The position numbers and the translations under genes are program-made. From an uncultured Lachnospiraceae bacterium (GTDB lineage Bacteria > Bacillota > Clostridia > Lachnospirales > Lachnospiraceae), in contig CASCGD010000003.1 in assembly GCA_949132985.1 (NCBI GenBank), positions 1,147-65,146 of the forward strand: a stretch of DNA of 64,000 bases. Direction: 5' to 3'. The notes below the pieces were generated by a model, which worked only from the letters and a program-made list of their open reading frames with translations, was not told the origin of the DNA and searched no databases. This document shows, one piece after another, positions 23,824 through 49,292 of this stretch (position 1 is its first letter; the number at the start of each line of letters is the position of its first letter).

Positions 23824-25125
23824 GTGGTTACGGAGACTTATAAACTGATCAATGCGATCAAAAAGATGTATCCGGTTGTTACGTTCTTCAAGGACAGATA
23901 CTTCCCGGATGCAAGGGTTTTCTATTCGCAGAAAGTGCTTATAGAAATGAAAAAGAAGGGGCGCAAGGTAGCACCGTTTGTCGTCCCGATTGTTGGTGGC
24001 ATCCCGGTAAAAAGCGAAGGTTACTGGGCTGACGAACTGACCGCGCCCTTTATCGCGCCGAAAATGGAAATTACGGCCGAAGAGCTTGAAAAGAAGGCAT
24101 TTGGCGAATCACCGGAAACAGACCGCAGACCGGAAGACCGGGAGAATGAGATCGAGGCAGAGCATATGGACGATATGCGCAAATCGATCCTCCGCAGGCT
24201 GGAGCTTATGAGCACAGAGATTATCCTGACGGGAGGCGTCGTGATGAAGCATTATGCGACCGCGGAGGACGCGGCAAATGATGTCCGTTATGACTTGAAG
24301 CAGTTCCGGTATTATGAAGGGGAATTTAAAAACAGATACCGGTTTGCGAAGGATTTCAGGACAATGACAGCGCAGGAACGTGTTATGGAGTTTTACAAGA
24401 TCGCGGCGATCCTGCGCAAAAGAGGAGTCCGTGCGACGGATATCGTTATGACGAGCGACGTGTCGATGCTCCTCGTGACAGATCCTGATTTTCTGGATTA
24501 TTATGACAAAAAGAGTGTCCAGACCGGAACGATTGACCAGGTGGAACTCCCGGAGGGTGTTGCGAGGAATGGGACAATCAATATCAATGGTGTCGTGATG
24601 ACCATGTATACCTATGACTGCGAGTATGAGGATCTCGACGGGGCGGCAAAGCCGTTTCTTCCTGCAGGAACGATCGCGTTCTTAAAACCGGGAATCGGAG
24701 AGACGGTTTACGGGCAGGTGACGTTTGTGAAAGGTTCCAGGCATGTGTCCTATGCGGAGAAAATCGTGCCGAGGGCATATGCCGACGAGAAAAACAACAT
24801 CCTTGAGGTGCAGGAGTTTTCGAGGCCGGTGCCGTATCCGTTTGACCCGGAATCATGGATCGTCTGCAATATTTATGATGGGCCCGCGGATTCTTCACCG
24901 GATAGTGGACGGGAAGGCGGAACAACGGGTGAAGCGGACGTGGCGCAGTACGCGTTAGAGCCGGACGGTGTGGAGACGAAATCGGAAGCCGAGATCATGG
25001 CGATGACGCGGAAGGCGGATGTGATCGCTTACGCGGAGTCCATCGGCCTTACAGGGCTTACGGAAGATATGAAGCTTGATGAGCTGAAGGCGGCGACACT
25101 GCAGCATCAGAATGAAATCTACTAA
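23824..25125 (+). CDS. Major capsid protein (lambda gpE family) with C-terminal extension
   Basis: FFKDRYFP, KVAPFV, RRLELM, SRPVP. Confidence 0.92.
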   Translation: MVTETYKLINAIKKMYPVVTFFKDRYFPDARVFYSQKVLIEMKKKGRKVAPFVVPIVGGIPVKSEGYWADELTAPFIAPKMEITAEELEKKAFGESPETDRRPEDRENEIEAEHMDDMRKSILRRLELMSTEIILTGGVVMKHYATAEDAANDVRYDLKQFRYYEGEFKNRYRFAKDFRTMTAQERVMEFYKIAAILRKRGVRATDIVMTSDVSMLLVTDPDFLDYYDKKSVQTGTIDQVELPEGVARNGTININGVVMTMYTYDCEYEDLDGAAKPFLPAGTIAFLKPGIGETVYGQVTFVKGSRHVSYAEKIVPRAYADEKNNILEVQEFSRPVPYPFDPESWIVCNIYDGPADSSPDSGREGGTTGEADVAQYALEPDGVETKSEAEIMAMTRKADVIAYAESIGLTGLTEDMKLDELKAATLQHQNEIY

Positions 25126-32500: not shown

Positions 32501-32891
32501 AAATCCAATTACAGCTACACCCCATGCAACGGGCGGAATCTTTTCCACACCTCATTTTGGCCTTCTGGCAGAGGATGGCCCCGAGGCTTATATTCCGCTG
32601 GACGGCTCAAAAAATGCGCTGTCCATATGGGAAAAGGCCGGCGCGATGCTCGGCGTCGGACAGCCAAAGGACGAGGCGCTTGTATCAGGCATTGCGGGCA
32701 GCGCAGGGATGGCGCGTGAAAATAGCGGAATCAACATACAGATTAATAACAGTCCACACATTATCATACAGGGAAACGCTTCGGAAAGCGACGTCCAGGC
32801 AGGCGTGGCCCTGGGCGCAGAGGATATTATCAATATCGTAAAGGAATATGTTGACGGACGGGCGCGGGTGAGCTTTTCGGGCGGCAGGTGA
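29598..32891 (+). CDS. Tape measure protein (TP901-type core)
   Basis: 1097 aa Ala/Gly-rich; YMALAGW; HATGGI...AEDGPEA.IPL. Confidence 0.95.
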   Translation: MGKAQYMLEVKLGASTTASYNRNINRALKSLDGLESTAKHVAAGAAAAFAAVNISQLAEDAFGTYSKFEQAMRNTAAISNATTAEYEMMEQAAREAGRGTTKTVAESAEALGYMALAGWDAKESVEGLMPILKLSEATGAKLKETSDLVTDSMSAFGLSVRDMGVYLDELVAGNNNSNMTAVMLMETLIGTGGAARSLGASLEDTITAAGVLADNGTKAGKAGTAMNSILTRLAANSKARDALEEIGASVFDAEGNFVGLREAIIEIDKALAGMSTEQRSGYLKDIAGTHYYSQMEYLLASVREGANGAASAWDKLEKKIEDSGGALDQMNATATDTMSASWERMKSAVDDAKISLVDVFGGDVTDFLDHAAAKIPDITDHVTDFVSNNKAEIFDALETGGELIGNVWNIAEGSVTWLLDHEGAVVGALTSIGTALFLKKAVSSATSIVSFLSGLTTPMGVIAGLSGAVGVIAGLGAAVDQANERAGRANLDEHFGDISLSLEELQDIAGEIVHGNDLNTVAEMLDAVGESENALKGVNRALKELEKSSWKIRAGFSLDEQDSEQYVTKVDEYVRQAQEYIDAKGYEVTVGATLLFGADSERTAEASEYANELSERAQGFGRFIQQQIVVALQDDGIIDEAEDALIQHYAQSIDKIKTAISEGQSEARMQAIKVKYSGAELDEEGFLQLADEIGKATEENRDAALAAYESTMAIYNAKKLSDPSYKTYDEDARAAELAFFQQNADAVTNGASYLLESIQSAYPELESAVVQAQGKLSEILEQAFAGDGKGGLLRGDPDAWGNIISSLYDGMVADDPAVQHALEIILSQTEPIRDGLEQAARECEEAGEEIPEAVKSGLQKLDMLGALSGDKDSAWTLFMDAVADNEEYRNVIETAKENGANIPEQISESITGNQVSIENAIDGLYAYSNQYLDQIYSRGFDVDAEVRVNYKTTTKKPPSIYDGTGSYVNPITATPHATGGIFSTPHFGLLAEDGPEAYIPLDGSKNALSIWEKAGAMLGVGQPKDEALVSGIAGSAGMARENSGINIQINNSPHIIIQGNASESDVQAGVALGAEDIINIVKEYVDGRARVSFSGGR

Positions 32892-34168: not shown

Positions 34169-34561
34169 TTGGCAGGAATTTTTTTATGTGAGGTGTCTGC
34201 GGCCCATGCAAAAGAGGGGACGGTTGATGTGAAAGTCGCCGACCGGGATGGCATGATAAAGACGGATGTGCCGATGCTTGATACGGTATATGAGATGCCG
34301 GAGGTCGGGGAAGTGCTGGCGGTATTGTTCGAGGAACGGAGCGGGGCGCTGCAGCGAGGGCTTGTGCTCGGGCACCCGTACTCTGCGGGGAACCGTCCGG
34401 AGCAGAGCGGGGAGCAGATTTTCTGCAAAACATTCCGCGACGGGGCATTTGTGAAATATGATGCGGCAACTAAGACGATGGATGTGAGTGCTGAAAGAAT
34501 TTGCGTGAAGCATCTGGCCGCAGAGCACATCGTATACAGAACCGCATGTGAAAAGGAATAA
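34169..34561 (+). CDS. Baseplate spike (gpV-like)
   Basis: AAAGGAGG then TTG; MPEVGEV...GLVLG..Y...N.P. Confidence 0.8.
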   Translation: MAGIFLCEVSAAHAKEGTVDVKVADRDGMIKTDVPMLDTVYEMPEVGEVLAVLFEERSGALQRGLVLGHPYSAGNRPEQSGEQIFCKTFRDGAFVKYDAATKTMDVSAERICVKHLAAEHIVYRTACEKE

Positions 34562-35249: not shown

Positions 35250-35552
35250 ATGGAAGTTGTATATGATAGAGGCTACATGCGCGAAGCTATGTCGGAGGCG
35301 GAACAGAAAAGTATTTCTTCCTGCGTCAACACGATTGCGTCCACTGCATATGGAACCGTGCCGTATGCACGGGAAATGGGGCTGAAACAGATATTGCCGC
35401 GGAATAATTCTGAAATGGCAAAGAATGAATATGCGACAGAGCTCGTGGATGCTGTTGAGAGCTGGGAGGAGCGGGTGGGTGTAAAAGAAGTTATATTTGA
35501 GGAGAATTGTGAAGTGAAGGTGGTGGTTGAATATGGCGGGCAGCTCGATTGA
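35250..35552 (+). CDS. Baseplate wedge gp25/gpW-like
   Basis: T..GTVPY.REMG...WE.R. Confidence 0.8.
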   Translation: MEVVYDRGYMREAMSEAEQKSISSCVNTIASTAYGTVPYAREMGLKQILPRNNSEMAKNEYATELVDAVESWEERVGVKEVIFEENCEVKVVVEYGGQLD

Positions 35553-38155: not shown

Positions 38156-39039
38156 GCATATTAATACCAAGCACAGAGCCGGGGGTATTGCAGGATGCGG
38201 AGACACTCAAGACGTATAATCCTGATATCGCGGCTTATGAGGAGTGCGATAGCGCGCTGATACCAGCAGATGGTGTTTGGCAGGAGGTATGGCCGGAGCA
38301 CCGGCAGGAGGTACATTATCTGATGCTCTATGACCGGGGCAATGAATGTATGGATGTCACTGGCGGATGGGAATATGTGCAAGAAGCCGGAATGCATAAC
38401 GCAGCATATATAGGCGAAGGAATTTGGCGTACAAAGCGAGAGATTGATTTTTCGGCCTATCCGAAAGGGATGGCGAACAGGCAGGCGCGCTTTATCTCTG
38501 GGTCAAGTCCTCGCAATTACACCTATATTTTCTCGCATGGCTCCTACCTGGAACCCGTGAACAAAAATAGCTATAAGGGATTTGTGTCATTTGACACAGA
38601 ATCCCCGACCAATTTTGTGCCATATATCTATGTATATAGCAATACTTATTATCCAACTACGAACAGAGGAGAAAGAAGGAGCGATTGTTTGTATATCTAT
38701 CATAATTACACCAGCTATTCGGAAACGGAAGAATATGTATATAGCCTTTGGGTGTATCAAGACGACGATTGGCAGACGTGGCTATCAAAGGCAGGGCTGG
38801 ACGCCGCATCTTATGACACACTCGATAGCGTGATGCAGGATGCGGCAGCTCTTGGCGTGCTGCTTGCATCAAGGCAAGCGGTGTCTTACATGATCTACCA
38901 GTGCACCGGTAGTGTTATGGTATCGGCTATCCAGTCAAAGGCATTTTTGGCGGCGCTGGAGGGTAGCCCATATAAGGACAAGATATATGCAAACGAGCAT
39001 TGGGACAAATTTTTGACGATGGTCGGGGTAGAGTTGTAA
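38152..39039 (+). CDS. Tail-tip protein 0 (no leader; ATGA-coupled to the stem gene)
   Basis: Shared N-module ending WQEVWP; LYDRGNECMDVTGGW. Confidence 0.75.
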   Translation: MSILIPSTEPGVLQDAETLKTYNPDIAAYEECDSALIPADGVWQEVWPEHRQEVHYLMLYDRGNECMDVTGGWEYVQEAGMHNAAYIGEGIWRTKREIDFSAYPKGMANRQARFISGSSPRNYTYIFSHGSYLEPVNKNSYKGFVSFDTESPTNFVPYIYVYSNTYYPTTNRGERRSDCLYIYHNYTSYSETEEYVYSLWVYQDDDWQTWLSKAGLDAASYDTLDSVMQDAAALGVLLASRQAVSYMIYQCTGSVMVSAIQSKAFLAALEGSPYKDKIYANEHWDKFLTMVGVEL

Positions 39040-41202: not shown

Positions 41203-41592
41203 ATGGGAAAAATCGTATTTGGCAACAAGGAAATTATCACACAAAGCGTATACCCATACGCGTACAGCAACGGAAAAGTAGTACTAAGGGTGTCAGCACG
41301 CGAAGAAGATGTGTCAGAGAATGACCTGAAACAGCTCAAAGACAATATGCTCCCGATTGAATACTATGAGTGCAAAACAGTCATGGACGCAGAGACGGGA
41401 GCTCTCACAGAAACGGATGCATGGGAACTGAAGGCAACCTATGATAACTACGACTCCGGCGAGTACGTATCATCCTACAAGGACGGCGTATACTCCTGCG
41501 AGATAACGCGTGTGGGAGAAACAGAAAAGGCCGTCCGCAGGAACACGGCAGATATCGCCTATCTTGGTATCATGGCCGGGGTAGAGCTGTAA
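41203..41592 (+). CDS. XkdW-like tail fibre accessory protein
   Basis: Ends ADIAYLGIMAGVEL; lies near the XkdX-like gene. Confidence 0.6.
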   Translation: MGKIVFGNKEIITQSVYPYAYSNGKVVLRVSAREEDVSENDLKQLKDNMLPIEYYECKTVMDAETGALTETDAWELKATYDNYDSGEYVSSYKDGVYSCEITRVGETEKAVRRNTADIAYLGIMAGVEL

Positions 41593-44721: not shown

Positions 44722-44751
44722 ATAACAGGCGGCATTATGCCGCCTGTTATT
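44722..44751. terminator. Bidirectional terminator
   Basis: ATAACAGGCGGCA-tta-TGCCGCCTGTTAT between convergent genes. Confidence 0.85.
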
Positions 44752-45445
44752 ACTGAATCCATGCCTCCTGCGGCATATTGTCTAAAATACTGTCAAGATC
44801 CCGGAACGCGTTGCCTTTCCATGTGAATTGGAATCCGCTCGTTTCTTCATCTGCTTTTTCGTATAATTCTTCGATCTGCCTCACCATCTGCAAATATCCT
44901 GTATTCTGGTCGCGTAGGATATCCAGCGCGGACTTGATGCAGTCGTACCGGTACCGCAATCCGATATAGGATTGATAGGTTCCAAAACAATACCGCATGG
45001 CTTTGATTAACTCGTCTTTTGTAAGGCGTTTCAGCTTCTTTGCCGCTTCATCATTCGCCCATTCGCTTTCATAATAGCCTAATCCATAATAGTCATGTTC
45101 GTATATATCGTATCCAAGCATTTCACCGCCTTTATTCACGGCAGCAAAAAAGATATCAAAATATTCCGGCACATATTCATTCCGGAGGTCGTCCCACATC
45201 CGTTCGCATTCACCGGCCAGATCACCAAACATCATCTTAAATTCAAAGGCATCGTCCTCATCCCCATCAAGGGTATTGATGAGTGTGTCCTCATCCCCGT
45301 CAATATAATACTGCACTTCGTCGCACGCTTCCCCTATATCCCATAGGGCTTCCTGTATATCATCGAGGTTCAGCCCTTTCGCAAGCGGTTTCTTATAGCG
45401 TAAATTCTTCGCTTTCAAGCGCTTTGTTTCCTCTGCATTTATCAT
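44750..45445 (-). CDS. Acidic hypothetical protein (accessory island, left arm)
   Basis: 231 aa from MINAEE; AGAAAGTGAG RBS. Confidence 0.8.
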   Translation of the reverse strand: MINAEETKRLKAKNLRYKKPLAKGLNLDDIQEALWDIGEACDEVQYYIDGDEDTLINTLDGDEDDAFEFKMMFGDLAGECERMWDDLRNEYVPEYFDIFFAAVNKGGEMLGYDIYEHDYYGLGYYESEWANDEAAKKLKRLTKDELIKAMRYCFGTYQSYIGLRYRYDCIKSALDILRDQNTGYLQMVRQIEELYEKADEETSGFQFTWKGNAFRDLDSILDNMPQEAWIQ

Positions 45446-45451
45446 CTCTGT

Positions 45452-45747
45452 CTCACTTTCTCCCTGCATTACCCGGCAGGGACGGGAAAACGGTTAATGC
45501 TCAATCAGTTGACTATAAATTTGATCTGCTGCTTCTGGATCAGCGTCAAGCATATCAAACGTATCTTTGATTCTGGCATATACTTCCGAAACGATAGCCT
45601 TCTGTGTGATTGCCTTATCTTCTTGATTGATTCTGCCTGCTTCAAAAGCGTATCCGTCAATCAGTTCCTTTAAAGATTTTGTCCTGTAATGCATATCTCT
45701 TGCCATATCCTCCTCACTTTCTCCCTGCATTACCCGGCAGGGACGGG
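45452..45747 (-). repeat. Two identical 35-bp repeats (45452-45486, 45713-45747); structural variants at 45951-45980 and 46638-46670
   Basis: CTCACTTTCTCCCTGCATTACCCGGCAGGGACGGG occurs twice. Confidence 0.92.
45494..45706 (-). CDS. Small hypothetical protein
   Basis: 70 aa from MARDMHY; RBS within the repeat. Confidence 0.7.
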   Translation of the reverse strand: MARDMHYRTKSLKELIDGYAFEAGRINQEDKAITQKAIVSEVYARIKDTFDMLDADPEAADQIYSQLIEH

Positions 45748-45754
45748 GTAGAAG

Positions 45755-45940
45755 TTACATTGTAGTGTTATTGATAGTCACCATAATTTCACTTAAAGCA
45801 CTTAAGCAATCCTCCGCTATGCTTACATCAGACAGGAACAATTCATCTTCTCTGGATTCTGGTTCTTGGTCAATTATGTTTCTTGCCTTTTTGATATATG
45901 CAAGCACTCTTTCAGAATTTCTTTTATTCATCTGTTTCAT
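45755..45940 (-). CDS. Small hypothetical protein
   Basis: 61 aa from MKQMNK; purine-rich RBS. Confidence 0.65.
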   Translation of the reverse strand: MKQMNKRNSERVLAYIKKARNIIDQEPESREDELFLSDVSIAEDCLSALSEIMVTINNTTM

Positions 45941-45983
45941 ATCTTCCCTTCTTTCTCCCGGCGCAACCCCGCCGGGTGGGTGG

Positions 45984-46250
45984 TTAATATACGCATGCTT
46001 CTGCAATGCTGTTTTCGATAATTGAATAAGTGTCAATCTCTAACTTGTACTCTTCTTCGCTTATTACACCGAGTTCATGGTCAAGTTCAGCGTCTTCATA
46101 TAATTTTCTGTTCATGTCCTTGAAAACTTTCCTGCCGTATTTTGTAAATGATAAGTAGAGTTCAATTCCGCATGATGTTCCATATCTTTTTGCCATTTCT
46201 AATGCTTCTTTGCGAGAGTGGTTGTATTCGTTTTTATAATTTCTTTTCAT
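45984..46250 (-). CDS. Small hypothetical protein
   Basis: 88 aa from MKRNYKNE. Confidence 0.65.
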   Translation of the reverse strand: MKRNYKNEYNHSRKEALEMAKRYGTSCGIELYLSFTKYGRKVFKDMNRKLYEDAELDHELGVISEEEYKLEIDTYSIIENSIAEACVY

Positions 46251-46314
46251 TTCCCATATCTTCCGTTCCTTTGATATTGCCGGTTTAAAGGGTTTCCGGC
46301 GTCCTATATGGTTG

Positions 46315-46548
46315 TTATGCAATCCCGTAGAGTCTGGTAGATTTGCGGAAGGTTTTAAGGACTCCGCCCGGCGTCCCATCCGGCTTAATCGTCCAGTGTG
46401 TATGTATACCGGAGAAATCGCTGCACAGACGTACGGTTATGGTCTTAGGGGTCTCCCGGACGATCTCGACCACATCAAACAAAAATCCGTCTGCCTCTGC
46501 TAACTGTGTACCAACCTTAATGTTACCTGCTAAAATGATGCTTGCCAT
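46315..46548 (-). CDS. Small beta-rich hypothetical protein
   Basis: AGGAGGT RBS, 77 aa. Confidence 0.75.
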   Translation of the reverse strand: MASIILAGNIKVGTQLAEADGFLFDVVEIVRETPKTITVRLCSDFSGIHTHWTIKPDGTPGGVLKTFRKSTRLYGIA

Positions 46549-46701
46549 AGTTTATACCTCCTGTATGAAAAGTGCTGATTATAGTTTCTTTTATGTTGGA
46601 TTTTCACCCCGAAGCTATTCAGCCGGTTCCGGTCGCTGTTGCCGAACTCTACGCCCCGGCAACCGGGCGGTTAAAAGTGTTTTGTTCTTGTTTCTGTAAT
46701 T

Positions 46702-46746
46702 ATAATAACACTAATATTAGTGGTTGTCAACACTGATATTAAAGTT
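46702..46746 (-). promoter_or_regulatory. Strong leftward promoter TTGACA-17-TATTAT with two palindromic operators
   Basis: AACACTAATATTAGTGGT at 46707 and AACACTGATATTAAAGTT at 46729. Confidence 0.85.
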
Positions 46747-46826
46747 TTTTGAAAAATATTTTTGGAGTTGATTTTATGAAGCCTGTGTATTATAATGATG
46801 AAAAGTCAAAGAAAGGGAGTGGAGAA

Positions 46827-47054
46827 ATGTGGCGTTACAAGATTGATATTTTGAAAGAATTATCGAATAGAGGATACACAAGTACTAAAATGAGGAAAGA
46901 CAAAATAATGTCAGAAGGGACAATGCAGCATATCAGGAAGGGGAAGGGAATATCAGTTGATACACTGAATACGATATGTTTGATATTGCGATTGGAACCA
47001 TCTGATATAATAGAAATAATACCAACAGATGAAGAAAAGATAAAATATTTTTAA
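46827..47054 (+). CDS. Small XRE/HTH_26 repressor (Aca-like)
   Basis: MSEGTMQHIRKGKGISVDTLNTIC..L...PSDIIE; own promoter TTGATT-17-TATAAT. Confidence 0.88.
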   Translation: MWRYKIDILKELSNRGYTSTKMRKDKIMSEGTMQHIRKGKGISVDTLNTICLILRLEPSDIIEIIPTDEEKIKYF

Positions 47055-47055
47055 A

Positions 47056-47100
47056 AACACTAAAATTAGTGTTGACACATACCAAAAAAGGTGTTATTAT
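47056..47100 (+). promoter_or_regulatory. Strong rightward promoter TTGACA-17-TATTAT with two operators
   Basis: AACACTAAAATTAGTGTT at 47056 and CATACCAAAAAAGGTGTT at 47078. Confidence 0.85.
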
Positions 47101-47155
47101 ATAATTGTCCAAAGGGAACGGCGGACAATAACTCGAAAGGGAGAAAGGAGAACAG

Positions 47156-47326
47156 ATGAACGATATGGCAACAAACAAGCAGCTACAATTTATCACATGG
47201 TTGATAACAACGGCAACCGACAAATGCCAGACAATCGAGGAAGTAAGGGAGCTGAACAAGGAAATTCGCAAACACTCCGACGGACTGATTGATGAACTGG
47301 CAGAACAGAACAAAGGGGCTGAATAA
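47156..47326 (+). CDS. Small hypothetical protein (56 aa, MNDMATNKQLQF...)
   Basis: GAAAGGAG RBS; hand-translated. Confidence 0.65.
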   Translation: MNDMATNKQLQFITWLITTATDKCQTIEEVRELNKEIRKHSDGLIDELAEQNKGAE

Positions 47327-47425
47327 ACAGCCCCAACACAACAGAAAGGGCGGCAGGCACACAAGCCGCCCGATTCTCAAAAATTATAGCAAATATAAAA
47401 TGATAAATCAATGGAGGAAATAAAA

Positions 47426-47623
47426 ATGAAGAGATATGGCAAAGATTTCGAACTGACAGAGGAACTTATGGATACAATAGGCAGTTACATGGACGATGAC
47501 ATACGCGAGGATATCCACGGAGAGATGGCCCCTTGCACGCCGGAAGAATTTTTAAAAAGGTATCTGGAATCAGACCCGGACTTCGCGGAACTTTTGAAAT
47601 CTGAATTTGATATTGTGATGTGA
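47426..47623 (+). CDS. AcrIC5-like small acidic protein
   Basis: YMDDDIREDIHGEMAPCTPEEFLKRY resembles the AcrIC5 core as recalled; highly acidic. Confidence 0.65.
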   Translation: MKRYGKDFELTEELMDTIGSYMDDDIREDIHGEMAPCTPEEFLKRYLESDPDFAELLKSEFDIVM

Positions 47624-47636
47624 GGCGCTTTGAGTA

Positions 47637-48419
47637 ATGGGTATATGGGAAAAACTGTTGGAAACGTATGACACATATTGTGAGAGCGGGCGCGTAGCGC
47701 CCGTTGCGCATACGCGGATTATTATGCATATTGGGGTAGTATTGGATAAAGAGTCAAACGTGCTCGTTGCGGCAAAGGGGAAACAGTCCATACTCGCTCC
47801 GTGCACGATTGACTCCGAGTGCAGGACAAGAAATGTTGCCCCGCACCTGCTCCACGACAACGTATCGTACATTGTGCCGGGCGTGGACGATAAAAGGCAC
47901 AGGGCATACCTTGAGCAGTTGGGGGCGTATGTGTCACAGGTGAACGATCCGCTAGCACAGATCATATACGATTATGTAAAGCGGGAGACGATTGCAGATG
48001 ATTTGAAACATCTGGTCGATCTGGCGGATAGGAAAAATAAAGGTCTTGTTATTGGATTTGGGATAAGGGACATACCGGAGACGCTGGATGCGTCGATAGA
48101 TACGATATGGACGGATTATTATTTGTCCACTCTTCCCATAAATGGGATATGCGGCATCACCGGACAGCCGGATCATATACCGGGCAAATATCCGGGGAAT
48201 ATCAGGCATCCAAGTGACATGGCAAAATTGTTTGTCGGTAAAGATACAGATCCTTTGTGCAGTATGCCAAAGATAAAGGCGGGCTATATTGCCAGCCAGA
48301 AAATTATACATATGCTGCAGGCAATGCACGGAGGATGGGTGGAGCAAGACGAATTGCCTTTGACCGATTGTGTATTGAGGGTGGGTGATCTTGCACACGA
48401 AGAAAGAGCGGAATTATGA
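47637..48419 (+). CDS. Orphan, C-terminally truncated Cas8c/Csd1-like protein
   Basis: W.KL.ETYD, PVAHT, PCT..S..RT...APH.L.D...Y, YLEQL, GIC.ITG...P..IR...D.AKL, SQK. Confidence 0.75.
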   Translation: MGIWEKLLETYDTYCESGRVAPVAHTRIIMHIGVVLDKESNVLVAAKGKQSILAPCTIDSECRTRNVAPHLLHDNVSYIVPGVDDKRHRAYLEQLGAYVSQVNDPLAQIIYDYVKRETIADDLKHLVDLADRKNKGLVIGFGIRDIPETLDASIDTIWTDYYLSTLPINGICGITGQPDHIPGKYPGNIRHPSDMAKLFVGKDTDPLCSMPKIKAGYIASQKIIHMLQAMHGGWVEQDELPLTDCVLRVGDLAHEERAEL

Positions 48420-49036
48420 AAAACAGAACACAAAAGGTTTGCCAGGACTGCGGCAAGCCTTTTTATGGAGGTAAAGATTGCTTTTACTGCCCGGGCTGCG
48501 CCAAAAAGAAAAAATCTGATACGGTAAAAAGAATCCGTGTCTGCCAGGATTGCGGAGTTGAATTTTTTGGCGGGCCGCGGTCAAAGAGGTGTCCAAACTG
48601 CGCGCGTTTGGCAAAGCGGGAGCGGGACAGGAAAAATAAAAAAGAAGGCCCGAAAAGACCGACTGGCAGCATGGACGTATGCGCTGTATGCGGGAAAGAA
48701 TACATTGTCTCTTCTGGCCGTCAAAAATACTGCTCTGAGGCTTGCCAGCGCAAAGGCGTGTTAGAGTGGCAGCGGAAACATAAAAAAGGATATAGCAAAG
48801 AGTCGGGACAGGATGCAAAAAAGCAGGGACGGCGCAAAGAGCAAAAAAAGATATGCGTATATTGCTTGCGGGAATTTAAGAGCAGCACGTCAACAAATAC
48901 ATGCTCCGAATATTGCAGATCGGAGCAGAAAAAGCTTGAACAGTGTGTTGTCGACGTGAAAAGAGGGCGCAAAAGGGATTTGAAAAGATACGAGGATATG
49001 CGGAAGGAGTATAGGGAGAGGATGCGGAAAACATAA
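48416..49036 (+). CDS. Basic multi-Zn-ribbon protein
   Basis: Four CxxC...CxxC/CSxxC units; Lys/Arg-rich. Confidence 0.8.
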   Translation: MKNRTQKVCQDCGKPFYGGKDCFYCPGCAKKKKSDTVKRIRVCQDCGVEFFGGPRSKRCPNCARLAKRERDRKNKKEGPKRPTGSMDVCAVCGKEYIVSSGRQKYCSEACQRKGVLEWQRKHKKGYSKESGQDAKKQGRRKEQKKICVYCLREFKSSTSTNTCSEYCRSEQKKLEQCVVDVKRGRKRDLKRYEDMRKEYRERMRKT

Positions 49037-49246: not shown

Positions 49247-49292
49247 TTGACTTTTAATCAAGTTGTCGGGGGTTCGAATCCCCCGTGTCTCA
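49247..49292 (+). other. attR core: 3' half of tRNA-Lys(UUU)
   Basis: TTGACTTTTAATCAA anticodon arm, GGTTCGAATCC T-loop and 3' acceptor strand present; no D-arm or 5' acceptor strand upstream. Confidence 0.88.

Follow-up and report, generated by a model that had tools for sequence, protein, structure and literature searches.

Why would a prophage carry, outside any cas operon, a gene for only the first part of the large subunit of a type I-C CRISPR complex? This question is raised by a 64,000-nucleotide stretch of DNA from an uncultured Lachnospiraceae bacterium (contig CASCGD010000003.1, assembly GCA_949132985.1; referred to below, at its full length, as the window), in which a 260-residue open reading frame (ORF; 47637..48419, + strand) lies in the accessory island of a prophage. 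We found (i) that this ORF encodes a stand-alone N-terminal domain (NTD) of Cas8c, as judged by Pfam, by fold and by the alignment of its homologues; (ii) that it belongs to a conserved family carried by mobile elements; (iii) that its neighbors are genes of the anti-CRISPR (Acr) type; and (iv) that spacers of a cognate I-C system target the prophage. We consider it probable that the gene has an anti-I-C function, and put at about even the chances that its product is a Cas8c-derived Acr working as a defective subunit of Cascade.

A stand-alone Cas8c N-terminal domain

An initial annotation of the window, made from the sequence alone, had recognized N-terminal motifs of Cas8c/Csd1 in this ORF and had noted that it stops soon after SQK. 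Both observations hold: the protein matches Pfam family PF09709 (Cas_Csd1) at E 9.2e-17 (61.3 bits, cut-off 27), its residues 7-210 aligning with profile positions 1-224 of 559, and it ends 39 residues past the conserved GYIASQK helix. Searches of NCBIfam and PHROGs assigned no family to it. An AlphaFold2 model built from 52 homologues (pLDDT 87.5, pTM 0.85) was compared with the Protein Data Bank (PDB) using Foldseek; the five best matches were all Cas8c chains of type I-C Cascade, from N. lactamica (Nla) and D. vulgaris (Dvu), at E 2.7e-8 to 2e-4, while the sixth match had an E of 0.29, so that the significant PDB matches are to Cas8c only. VIA-align placed model residues 2-235 on residues 1-262 of Nla Cas8c (8gaf_G; Z 15.1, rmsd 3.8 Å over 228 residues) and the model on residues 3-258 of Dvu Cas8c (Z 12.9). 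The profile or structure match to Cas8c that the initial annotation had proposed to look for is thus significant in Pfam, Foldseek and VIA-align alike. The short-family sequence profile found nothing among PDB sequences at E <= 0.01, and the link from the short family to the solved Cas8c structures runs through the fold comparison and one intermediate full-length sequence only.

The domains of Nla Cas8c have been delimited as NTD (1-259), wedge (260-348), adaptor (349-457) and C-terminal domain (CTD; 458-582) (10.1101/2023.08.05.552134). Since the fold match covers Nla residues 1-262, the prophage protein is the Cas8c NTD alone, ending at a domain boundary. The full architecture of the large subunit is not present: the wedge, the adaptor and the Cas11-like CTD are missing, and there is no internal cas11. 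The description of the protein as the N-terminal half of Cas8c therefore stands as regards its N-terminal origin but needs amending, because this is not an arbitrary cut, and because a motif within the domain has been lost as well.

Within the NTD, the loop that interacts with the protospacer adjacent motif (PAM) is kept, as R63-T64-x-N66; in the joint alignment it shows the R-T-S pattern of the nearest full-length clade, and through the intermediate full-length sequence it aligns with Dvu G71-N72-G73 and Nla R69-S72. A second segment is kept in every full-length Cas8c sampled, reading S-x-N-D...F-T-Y-R-G-R-F in the full-length group that we call clade B and SFN..AFESYGKEQ in clade A (Dvu 219-232). 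Expressed as a group consensus, S-x-N-(D/A)...F-(T/E)-(Y/S)-(R/Y)-G, it precedes the SQK/ALN helix in all 20 NTDs of clade B and all 18 of clade A; all 52 short forms have a variable stretch or a deletion instead. To judge from these alignments, its absence from the short forms is a derived loss.

A word-indexed search found at least 81 clusters of homologues, 162-329 residues long and all with PF09709. In the alignment of 52 short homologues, 26 columns are invariant at identities of 35-85%, and every chain ends 20-50 residues past the GYIASQKIIHTLQ helix. An exhaustive hidden Markov model (HMM) search of 1.84 billion representatives returned, as its top 24 matches, proteins of 185-308 residues scoring 195-357 bits, and full-length Cas8c followed below a gap, at no more than 145 bits; over at least 24 clusters, defined at 50% identity, the length is maintained. 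A scan of IMG/VR, from which 37 viral contigs were fetched, yielded 35 complete ORFs, all of 217-294 residues. Against an 85%-identical homologue (dS 0.47-0.64), dN/dS is 0.11 by NG86 and 0.16 by YN00. Same-length homologues thus recur in phages and also in integrative conjugative elements (ICEs), and the gene is under purifying selection, two points that the initial annotation had proposed to check. Conservation, dN/dS and the recurrent length rule out a decayed pseudogene left by a lost cas operon. A word-based search for longer relatives gave two long ones only. One of these, P0082 (464 residues, single contig), is a short Cas8c of the P0034 type running on into a P-loop region with the Walker A sequence GKSGTGKS, and may be a fusion or a read-through.

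In a maximum-likelihood tree of NTD regions, with the other Lachnospiraceae Cas8c clade as outgroup, a single branch (SH-aLRT 71) divides the 52 short proteins from the rest, with one label change between them and bona fide Cas8c, in keeping with the bit-score gap. Their neighbors are the full-length clade B proteins, among them the Cas8c of the prophage's own host, whose I-C system is described below. The window protein shares only 26% identity with the host Cas8c, so that the short lineage must be old; this identity, and the fact that the host protein is not the nearest branch, rule out a recent capture of the host's cas8c. Among 400 genomes of the host's family, one per genus, full-length Cas8c was found in 74 and the short form in the assembly studied here only; mobile elements known from metagenomic sampling are the main carriers of the short family. 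Taken at the level of sequence, the short Cas8c appears to be an ancient, independently evolving copy of the Cas8c NTD alone.

The phage homologues lie between accessory genes (Tad4, MazG, YopX) and genes for DUF4417 and terminase, and the ICE homologue lies near a TraG/VirD4-type coupling protein of a type IV secretion system; the short Cas8c invariably has small accessory genes around it and never lies in a cas operon. These data bear directly on the possibility that the gene has a role outside CRISPR or none, being either a captured cas8c fragment that persists as a neutral passenger, or one recruited by the phage to bind DNA for purposes of its own. It can be said for this possibility that the anti-CRISPR function is one that we infer, that the RNA-library contigs described below do not cover the body of the NTD gene, and that the zinc-ribbon family encoded next to it is far larger than the NTD family, so that their linkage could be positional only. 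However, we consider it improbable, given the low dN/dS, the 26 invariant columns among sequences as divergent as 35% identity, the length kept across at least 24 clusters, the occurrence on two kinds of mobile element and the consistent absence from cas operons.

The operon and its partner genes

The prophage in the window is recognizable from genes for a replication initiator, a methyltransferase, the large terminase, the portal, the major head protein and the tape measure, and its lysis region includes an amidase endolysin (43844). The accessory island (44750-49036) lies between the lysis genes and the 3' fragment of a tRNA-Lys-like gene (~49247-49292; anticodon loop CTTTTAA, T-arm GGGGGTTCGAATCCCCC). 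Sequence agreement with contigs from other runs breaks off exactly at this fragment, which is probably the attR of the prophage; ARAGORN found no whole tRNA within the window. The Cas8c NTD gene is accordingly situated at the attR end. As had been reported, neither cas5, cas7, cas3 nor a CRISPR array is present in the window.

Four genes make up the rightward operon, all on the + strand: (i) an acidic 56-residue ORF (47156..47326; pI 4.8) with no family match; (ii) an AcrIC5-family gene (47411..47623; pI 4.2), identified by Pfam PF22147 at E 7.9e-10 (39.2 bits, cut-off 27), whose product has 70 residues from 47411 or, likelier, 65 residues from the ATG at 47426, which is preceded by GGAGGA; (iii) the Cas8c NTD gene; and (iv) a gene for a basic protein of 206 residues with four CxxC...CxxC zinc ribbons (48416..49036; pI 9.8), the start of which overlaps the stop codon of the NTD gene (ATGA). 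The AcrIC5-like neighbor noted in the initial annotation is thereby confirmed. Upstream lies a gene for a Cro/C1-type regulator (46777..47054, + strand; Pfam HTH_26, E 4.1e-10), for which the longest ORF begins at TTG 46749 and the ATG at 46777 is preceded by GGAG; its product is a candidate Aca-like (Acr-associated) repressor. This gene is flanked by two divergent predicted promoters, each TTGACA-17-TATTAT, TG-extended and matching 11 of 12 consensus positions: one rightward (47072-47100, + strand) and its mirror image leftward (46702-46730, - strand). Both are overlapped by palindromes of the AACACTAA(A/T)ATTAGTGTT type; on the rightward side an 18-bp palindrome, AACACTAAAATTAGTGTT (47056-47073), overlaps the -35 hexamer. 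Of the strong repressible promoter that had been proposed, the consensus match and the palindrome at the -35 hexamer are thus present, while its strength and repression are read from sequence only.

Contigs assembled from mouse-gut metatranscriptomes in two studies are exact matches to window positions 47093-47297, a stretch whose left end lies slightly before the predicted transcription start, and a contig from one of these studies also matches 47328-47684, spanning the AcrIC5-like gene and the initial 48 nt of the NTD gene. Together, the RNA-library contigs cover the HTH gene, the 56-residue ORF and the AcrIC5-like gene, and none covers 47685-48816. Because DNA carry-over is possible, we take them as a weak hint of expression of the operon; for the body of the NTD gene they speak neither for expression nor against it.

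The leftward arm of the island (44750-46548, - strand) has four or five ORFs that are small or acidic (239, 78, 93, 131 and 77 residues), for which we found no Pfam or PHROG match and no homologue in 47 related loci. In other runs the region 45486-45984 is rearranged, with 190-450 nt skipped at the joints, a pattern suggestive of a variable cassette.

In 31 of 31 distinct cases, the gene immediately upstream (-1) of the short Cas8c shares its strand and has a small acidic product (pI < 5, median 4.1). These proteins belong to at least four unrelated families, and acidic proteins make up 0-22% of those encoded elsewhere in the loci, where ORF calling was crude. The commonest -1 gene (29 loci) encodes a family of 113-172 residues with a pI of about 4.1, which we designate fam00 (e.g., L009:5605-5985, L068:587-1036 and L113:3613-4008). 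Its model is of high confidence (pLDDT 91.8), but fam00 has no Pfam family, no PDB fold match at E <= 0.001, and in the Atlas its own viral cluster only. That it represents a Cas11 or Cas8c-CTD piece is ruled out by the lack of similarity to the host Cas8c, of a Pfam family and of a PDB match; it is a candidate for a new Acr family.

Two natural fusions bring the partners into one chain. In P0038, found on 11 contigs, an N-terminal HTH_3 domain precedes the short Cas8c, an arrangement that resembles Acr-Aca fusions, and in P0061, known from a single 1.35-kb contig, an AcrIC5 domain follows the short Cas8c at its C terminus. These fusions, to HTH and to AcrIC5, support the earlier interpretation of the position beside an AcrIC5-like gene as an acr context.

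The constancy of the acidic partner also provides the main rival to the reading that we favor. A published prediction has AcrIC5 binding at the PAM site of the Cas8c NTD (10.1101/2025.06.06.658234), and the short protein keeps its PAM-loop residues. The two proteins could form an obligate two-part inhibitor, the NTD being active only when bound to the acidic protein encoded upstream, which in this locus is the AcrIC5-like DNA mimic. The NTD might then be a carrier that docks on Cascade and brings the mimic to the PAM pocket, or the mimic might mask the DNA-binding face of the NTD until loading. The 31 of 31 acidic -1 proteins, drawn from at least four families and set against 0-22% elsewhere, are in agreement with this, as is the one Cas8c NTD-AcrIC5 fusion. 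However, that fusion is known from one short contig, acr loci are generally rich in acidic proteins, and in one locus (L113) fam00 directly precedes a zinc-ribbon gene with no Cas8c NTD present, which shows that the genes assort independently, as is usual for acr cargo. We therefore regard an obligate two-part inhibitor as rather unlikely.

Of 47 loci, 17 have the zinc-ribbon gene after the NTD gene, and these represent several subclades. The zinc-ribbon family comprises more than 207 clusters (at >=60% identity) without a Pfam family, and some members (P0130, P0151) are fused to sigma-70 region 4. The protein is a candidate transcription factor or regulator, or else an Aca-like island anchor, and its gene behaves like a conserved anchor of a variable anti-defense island. 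Separately, an orphan full-length Cas7 of 273 residues, 49% identical to the host Cas7c, is encoded at the lysis-proximal end of other Lachnospiraceae prophages (L110:4950-5771, and also in L111 and L112), two genes after a zinc-ribbon homologue. It may be a second type of Cas-derived I-C inhibitor in the same kind of island. A more elaborate arrangement can be imagined, in which the NTD is a modular "Trojan subunit" that docks on Cas5c-Cas7 and brings an exchangeable DNA mimic into the PAM pocket, and in which the zinc-ribbon protein is a new, non-HTH Aca-like anchor marking Lachnospiraceae islands with orphan Cascade subunits (Cas8c NTD, Cas7c); we mention this as a speculation that is unlikely to hold in full.

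A host I-C system that targets the prophage

The assembly to which the window belongs is evidently a bin from a mouse-gut metagenome (3.17 Mb in 166 contigs, 87% complete), for which one sequencing run is flagged as a possible source. One of its contigs (C47) carries an intact I-C locus, cas3-cas5c-cas8c-cas7-cas4-cas1-cas2, with seven intact ORFs and a Cas8c of 608 residues, and another (C6, 284-2802) carries an array of 38 copies of the I-C repeat GTCGCGCCCCGCGAGGGGCGTGTGGATTGAAAT and 37 spacers. The end of C47 past cas2 does not overlap the start of C6, where the array leader lies, so that the cas operon and the array are unjoined in the assembly. The Cas8c of the prophage is thus an orphan in the sense of lying outside any cas operon, but not in the sense of lacking an I-C system in its genome.

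Six of the 37 host spacers match the window prophage at protospacers that lie immediately 3' of a 5'-TTC PAM, and two of these matches are perfect: the leader-proximal spacer sp01 (35/35; 35411..35445, + strand) and sp06 (34/34; 32596..32629, + strand). The others have one mismatch (sp08, at position 7; 41490..41523, - strand, and sp30; 38381..38415, - strand), two mismatches (sp23; 34301..34333, - strand) or three (sp22; 24494..24527, + strand). Two more spacers match the prophage partially and without a PAM, bringing the number similar to it to 8 of 37, a sign that spacers were acquired repeatedly from this phage or from relatives. No host spacer matched the loci fetched from relatives.

Should array and prophage reside in one cell, the matches amount to classic self-targeting, from which an active Acr would be predicted. 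The initial annotation had suggested looking for a host I-C system with self-targeting spacers; the system is intact and six matches are flanked by a PAM, but in a metagenome bin the array and the prophage may come from different strains. In that case, the spacers would show I-C pressure on this phage in the host population rather than tolerated self-targeting. Selection for I-C inhibitors exists in either case.

This pressure bears on a further alternative, namely, that the NTD is a sponge or buffer for Acrs, binding DNA mimics aimed at the PAM site of Cas8c and thereby acting as an anti-anti-CRISPR. It would shield the CRISPR system of the lysogen from the Acrs of superinfecting phages, or tune the prophage's own AcrIC5. 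The domain that has been kept is the exact target of AcrIC5, AcrIC4, AcrIF2 and AcrIC9, and Katz et al. consider that viral cas genes may at first help the lysogen (10.1101/2023.06.24.545427). However, six spacers from the host population target this very prophage, so that the element gains from having I-C switched off; co-transcription, and in one case fusion, with an AcrIC5-family protein would be self-defeating; and homologues also occur in lytic-cycle early regions of phages. We judge such a role highly improbable.

A putative defective subunit of Cascade

The reading that we favor, a Cas8c-derived inhibitor of I-C Cascade, would work as follows. The NTD would be expressed from the regulated accessory operon of the prophage, together with an AcrIC5-type DNA mimic. 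As a free domain it would occupy, on the platform of Cas5c, Cas7 and crRNA, the place of the native Cas8c NTD, which is flexibly tethered; this could happen while Cascade assembles or later. Being the PAM-reading module, it would be seated at the Cas5c end of Cascade. It would bring with it neither the wedge, with its functions in DNA unwinding and its Cas3 recruit loop, nor the adaptor, the Cas11-like CTD or the S-x-N...F-T-Y-R-G-R-F motif. Because the wedge, adaptor and CTD are missing, a Cascade holding the free NTD would be defective, with PAM contact uncoupled from unwinding, from R-loop formation or locking, and from recruitment of Cas3. The native Cas8c NTD is mobile or unresolved in apo and in AcrIC8-bound Cascade, which we count in favor of a defective subunit, and a precedent exists in AcrIB3 (Cas5-like) and AcrIB4 (Cas8b CTD-like), which join a defective Cascade (10.1101/2023.06.24.545427).

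The initial annotation had also considered that the protein might titrate Cas3. In Nla, Cas3 docks on the wedge (260-348), which contains the recruit loop (276-297) (10.1101/2023.08.05.552134); since the wedge is absent from the prophage protein, this part of the proposal fell away, and we regard Cas3 titration as unlikely.

Prediction of a complex between the NTD and the host Cas5c gave a score of 0.36, as against 0.15 for the best of three controls, a weak result that may reflect likeness to a similar complex already solved. Of 80 solved complexes, 58 attain the mark that this pair passed, as do 2 of 110 mismatched pairs; scores of 0.60 or less comprised only 7 of the 80 solved complexes together with both passing mismatches, and are more often wrong unless the pairing is already likely. 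Between runs of the NTD-Cas5c prediction, contact agreement was at least 47%, and the pLDDT of the partner was at least 78.

Several points weigh against our interpretation. Because the prophage protein shares only 26% identity with the host Cas8c NTD, it may fail to dock on the host Cas5c, and the prediction of their complex is weak. A lone NTD may also be a poor competitor, since the CTD and Cas11 help to hold the native Cas8c in Cascade. The single origin of the short clade is modestly supported (SH-aLRT 71), and inhibition by any member of the family is something that we infer. The array and the prophage, coming from a metagenome bin, are possibly from different strains. Finally, the AcrIC5-family neighbor could by itself explain the tolerance of I-C targeting, and for this reason the spacer matches do not single out the Cas8c NTD gene.

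The protein can be compared with several known systems. Like AcrIB3 and AcrIB4, it is a homologue of a Cascade subunit that is encoded on a mobile element, outside a cas operon, beside known acr genes, and that forms a lineage of its own. However, it concerns subtype I-C rather than I-B, and what it keeps is the N-terminal, PAM-reading domain, whereas AcrIB4 is a C-terminal Cas11-like bundle and AcrIB3 a whole subunit. With Cas8c/Csd1 (PDB 8G9T, 8G9U, 8GAF and 8DEJ) it shares the sequence family, the fold of residues 1-262 and the R-T-x-N PAM loop; it differs in lacking the wedge, adaptor and CTD-Cas11 as well as the S-x-N...F-T-Y-R-G-R-F motif, in lying outside a cas operon and in its low identity to the host's protein. 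The operon resembles the Aca-regulated operons of AcrIC5, AcrIC4, AcrIC9 and AcrIF2 in having a small acidic Acr-family gene, an HTH regulator, palindromes at a predicted strong promoter and targeting spacers, although the regulator is encoded ahead of the promoter and not at the operon end, where a gene for a basic zinc-ribbon protein stands instead. Unlike the DNA-mimic I-C Acrs, the NTD protein itself, with 260 residues and a pI of 5.6, is not a small acidic mimic.

One of the most common CRISPR subtypes is type I-C, which also serves as a tool for long-range genome deletion. In the literature that we searched, the characterized I-C inhibitors are all small proteins that bind Cascade or Cas3 from outside, and there is no report of an experimentally tested Cas8c-derived Acr. 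Katz et al., who described the Cas-derived AcrIB3 and AcrIB4 of Listeria, catalogued 358 orphan viral cas genes; their Table S3 includes orphan "cas8c, CAS-I-C" matches in Lachnospiraceae phages, and the main text is silent on cas8c (10.1101/2023.06.24.545427). Three of the contigs in that table (UViG 3300029739_000022, 3300045988_008992 and 3300029660_000034) are identical to relatives that we had fetched independently (L073, L092 and L099). The family is therefore already catalogued as orphan viral cas8c, and is less novel than the initial annotation implied. What this locus adds is (i) the exact definition of the domain; (ii) the apparent derived loss of a motif; (iii) a cognate array with perfect, PAM-flanked matches; (iv) the invariant acidic partner; and (v) a zinc-ribbon anchor common to the orphan Cas7 islands.

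The locus is a good test case, combining in one assembly the cognate cas operon, the array and matching protospacers, and offering an AcrIC5-like natural control in the same operon, natural fusions and more than 80 diverse homologues. The zinc-ribbon gene and the invariably acidic upstream gene could also serve as guilt-by-association markers for anti-CRISPR loci in Clostridia. If our interpretation is true, the principle of the defective subunit would extend from type I-B to type I-C, to the Lachnospiraceae of the gut, and to another part of the large subunit.

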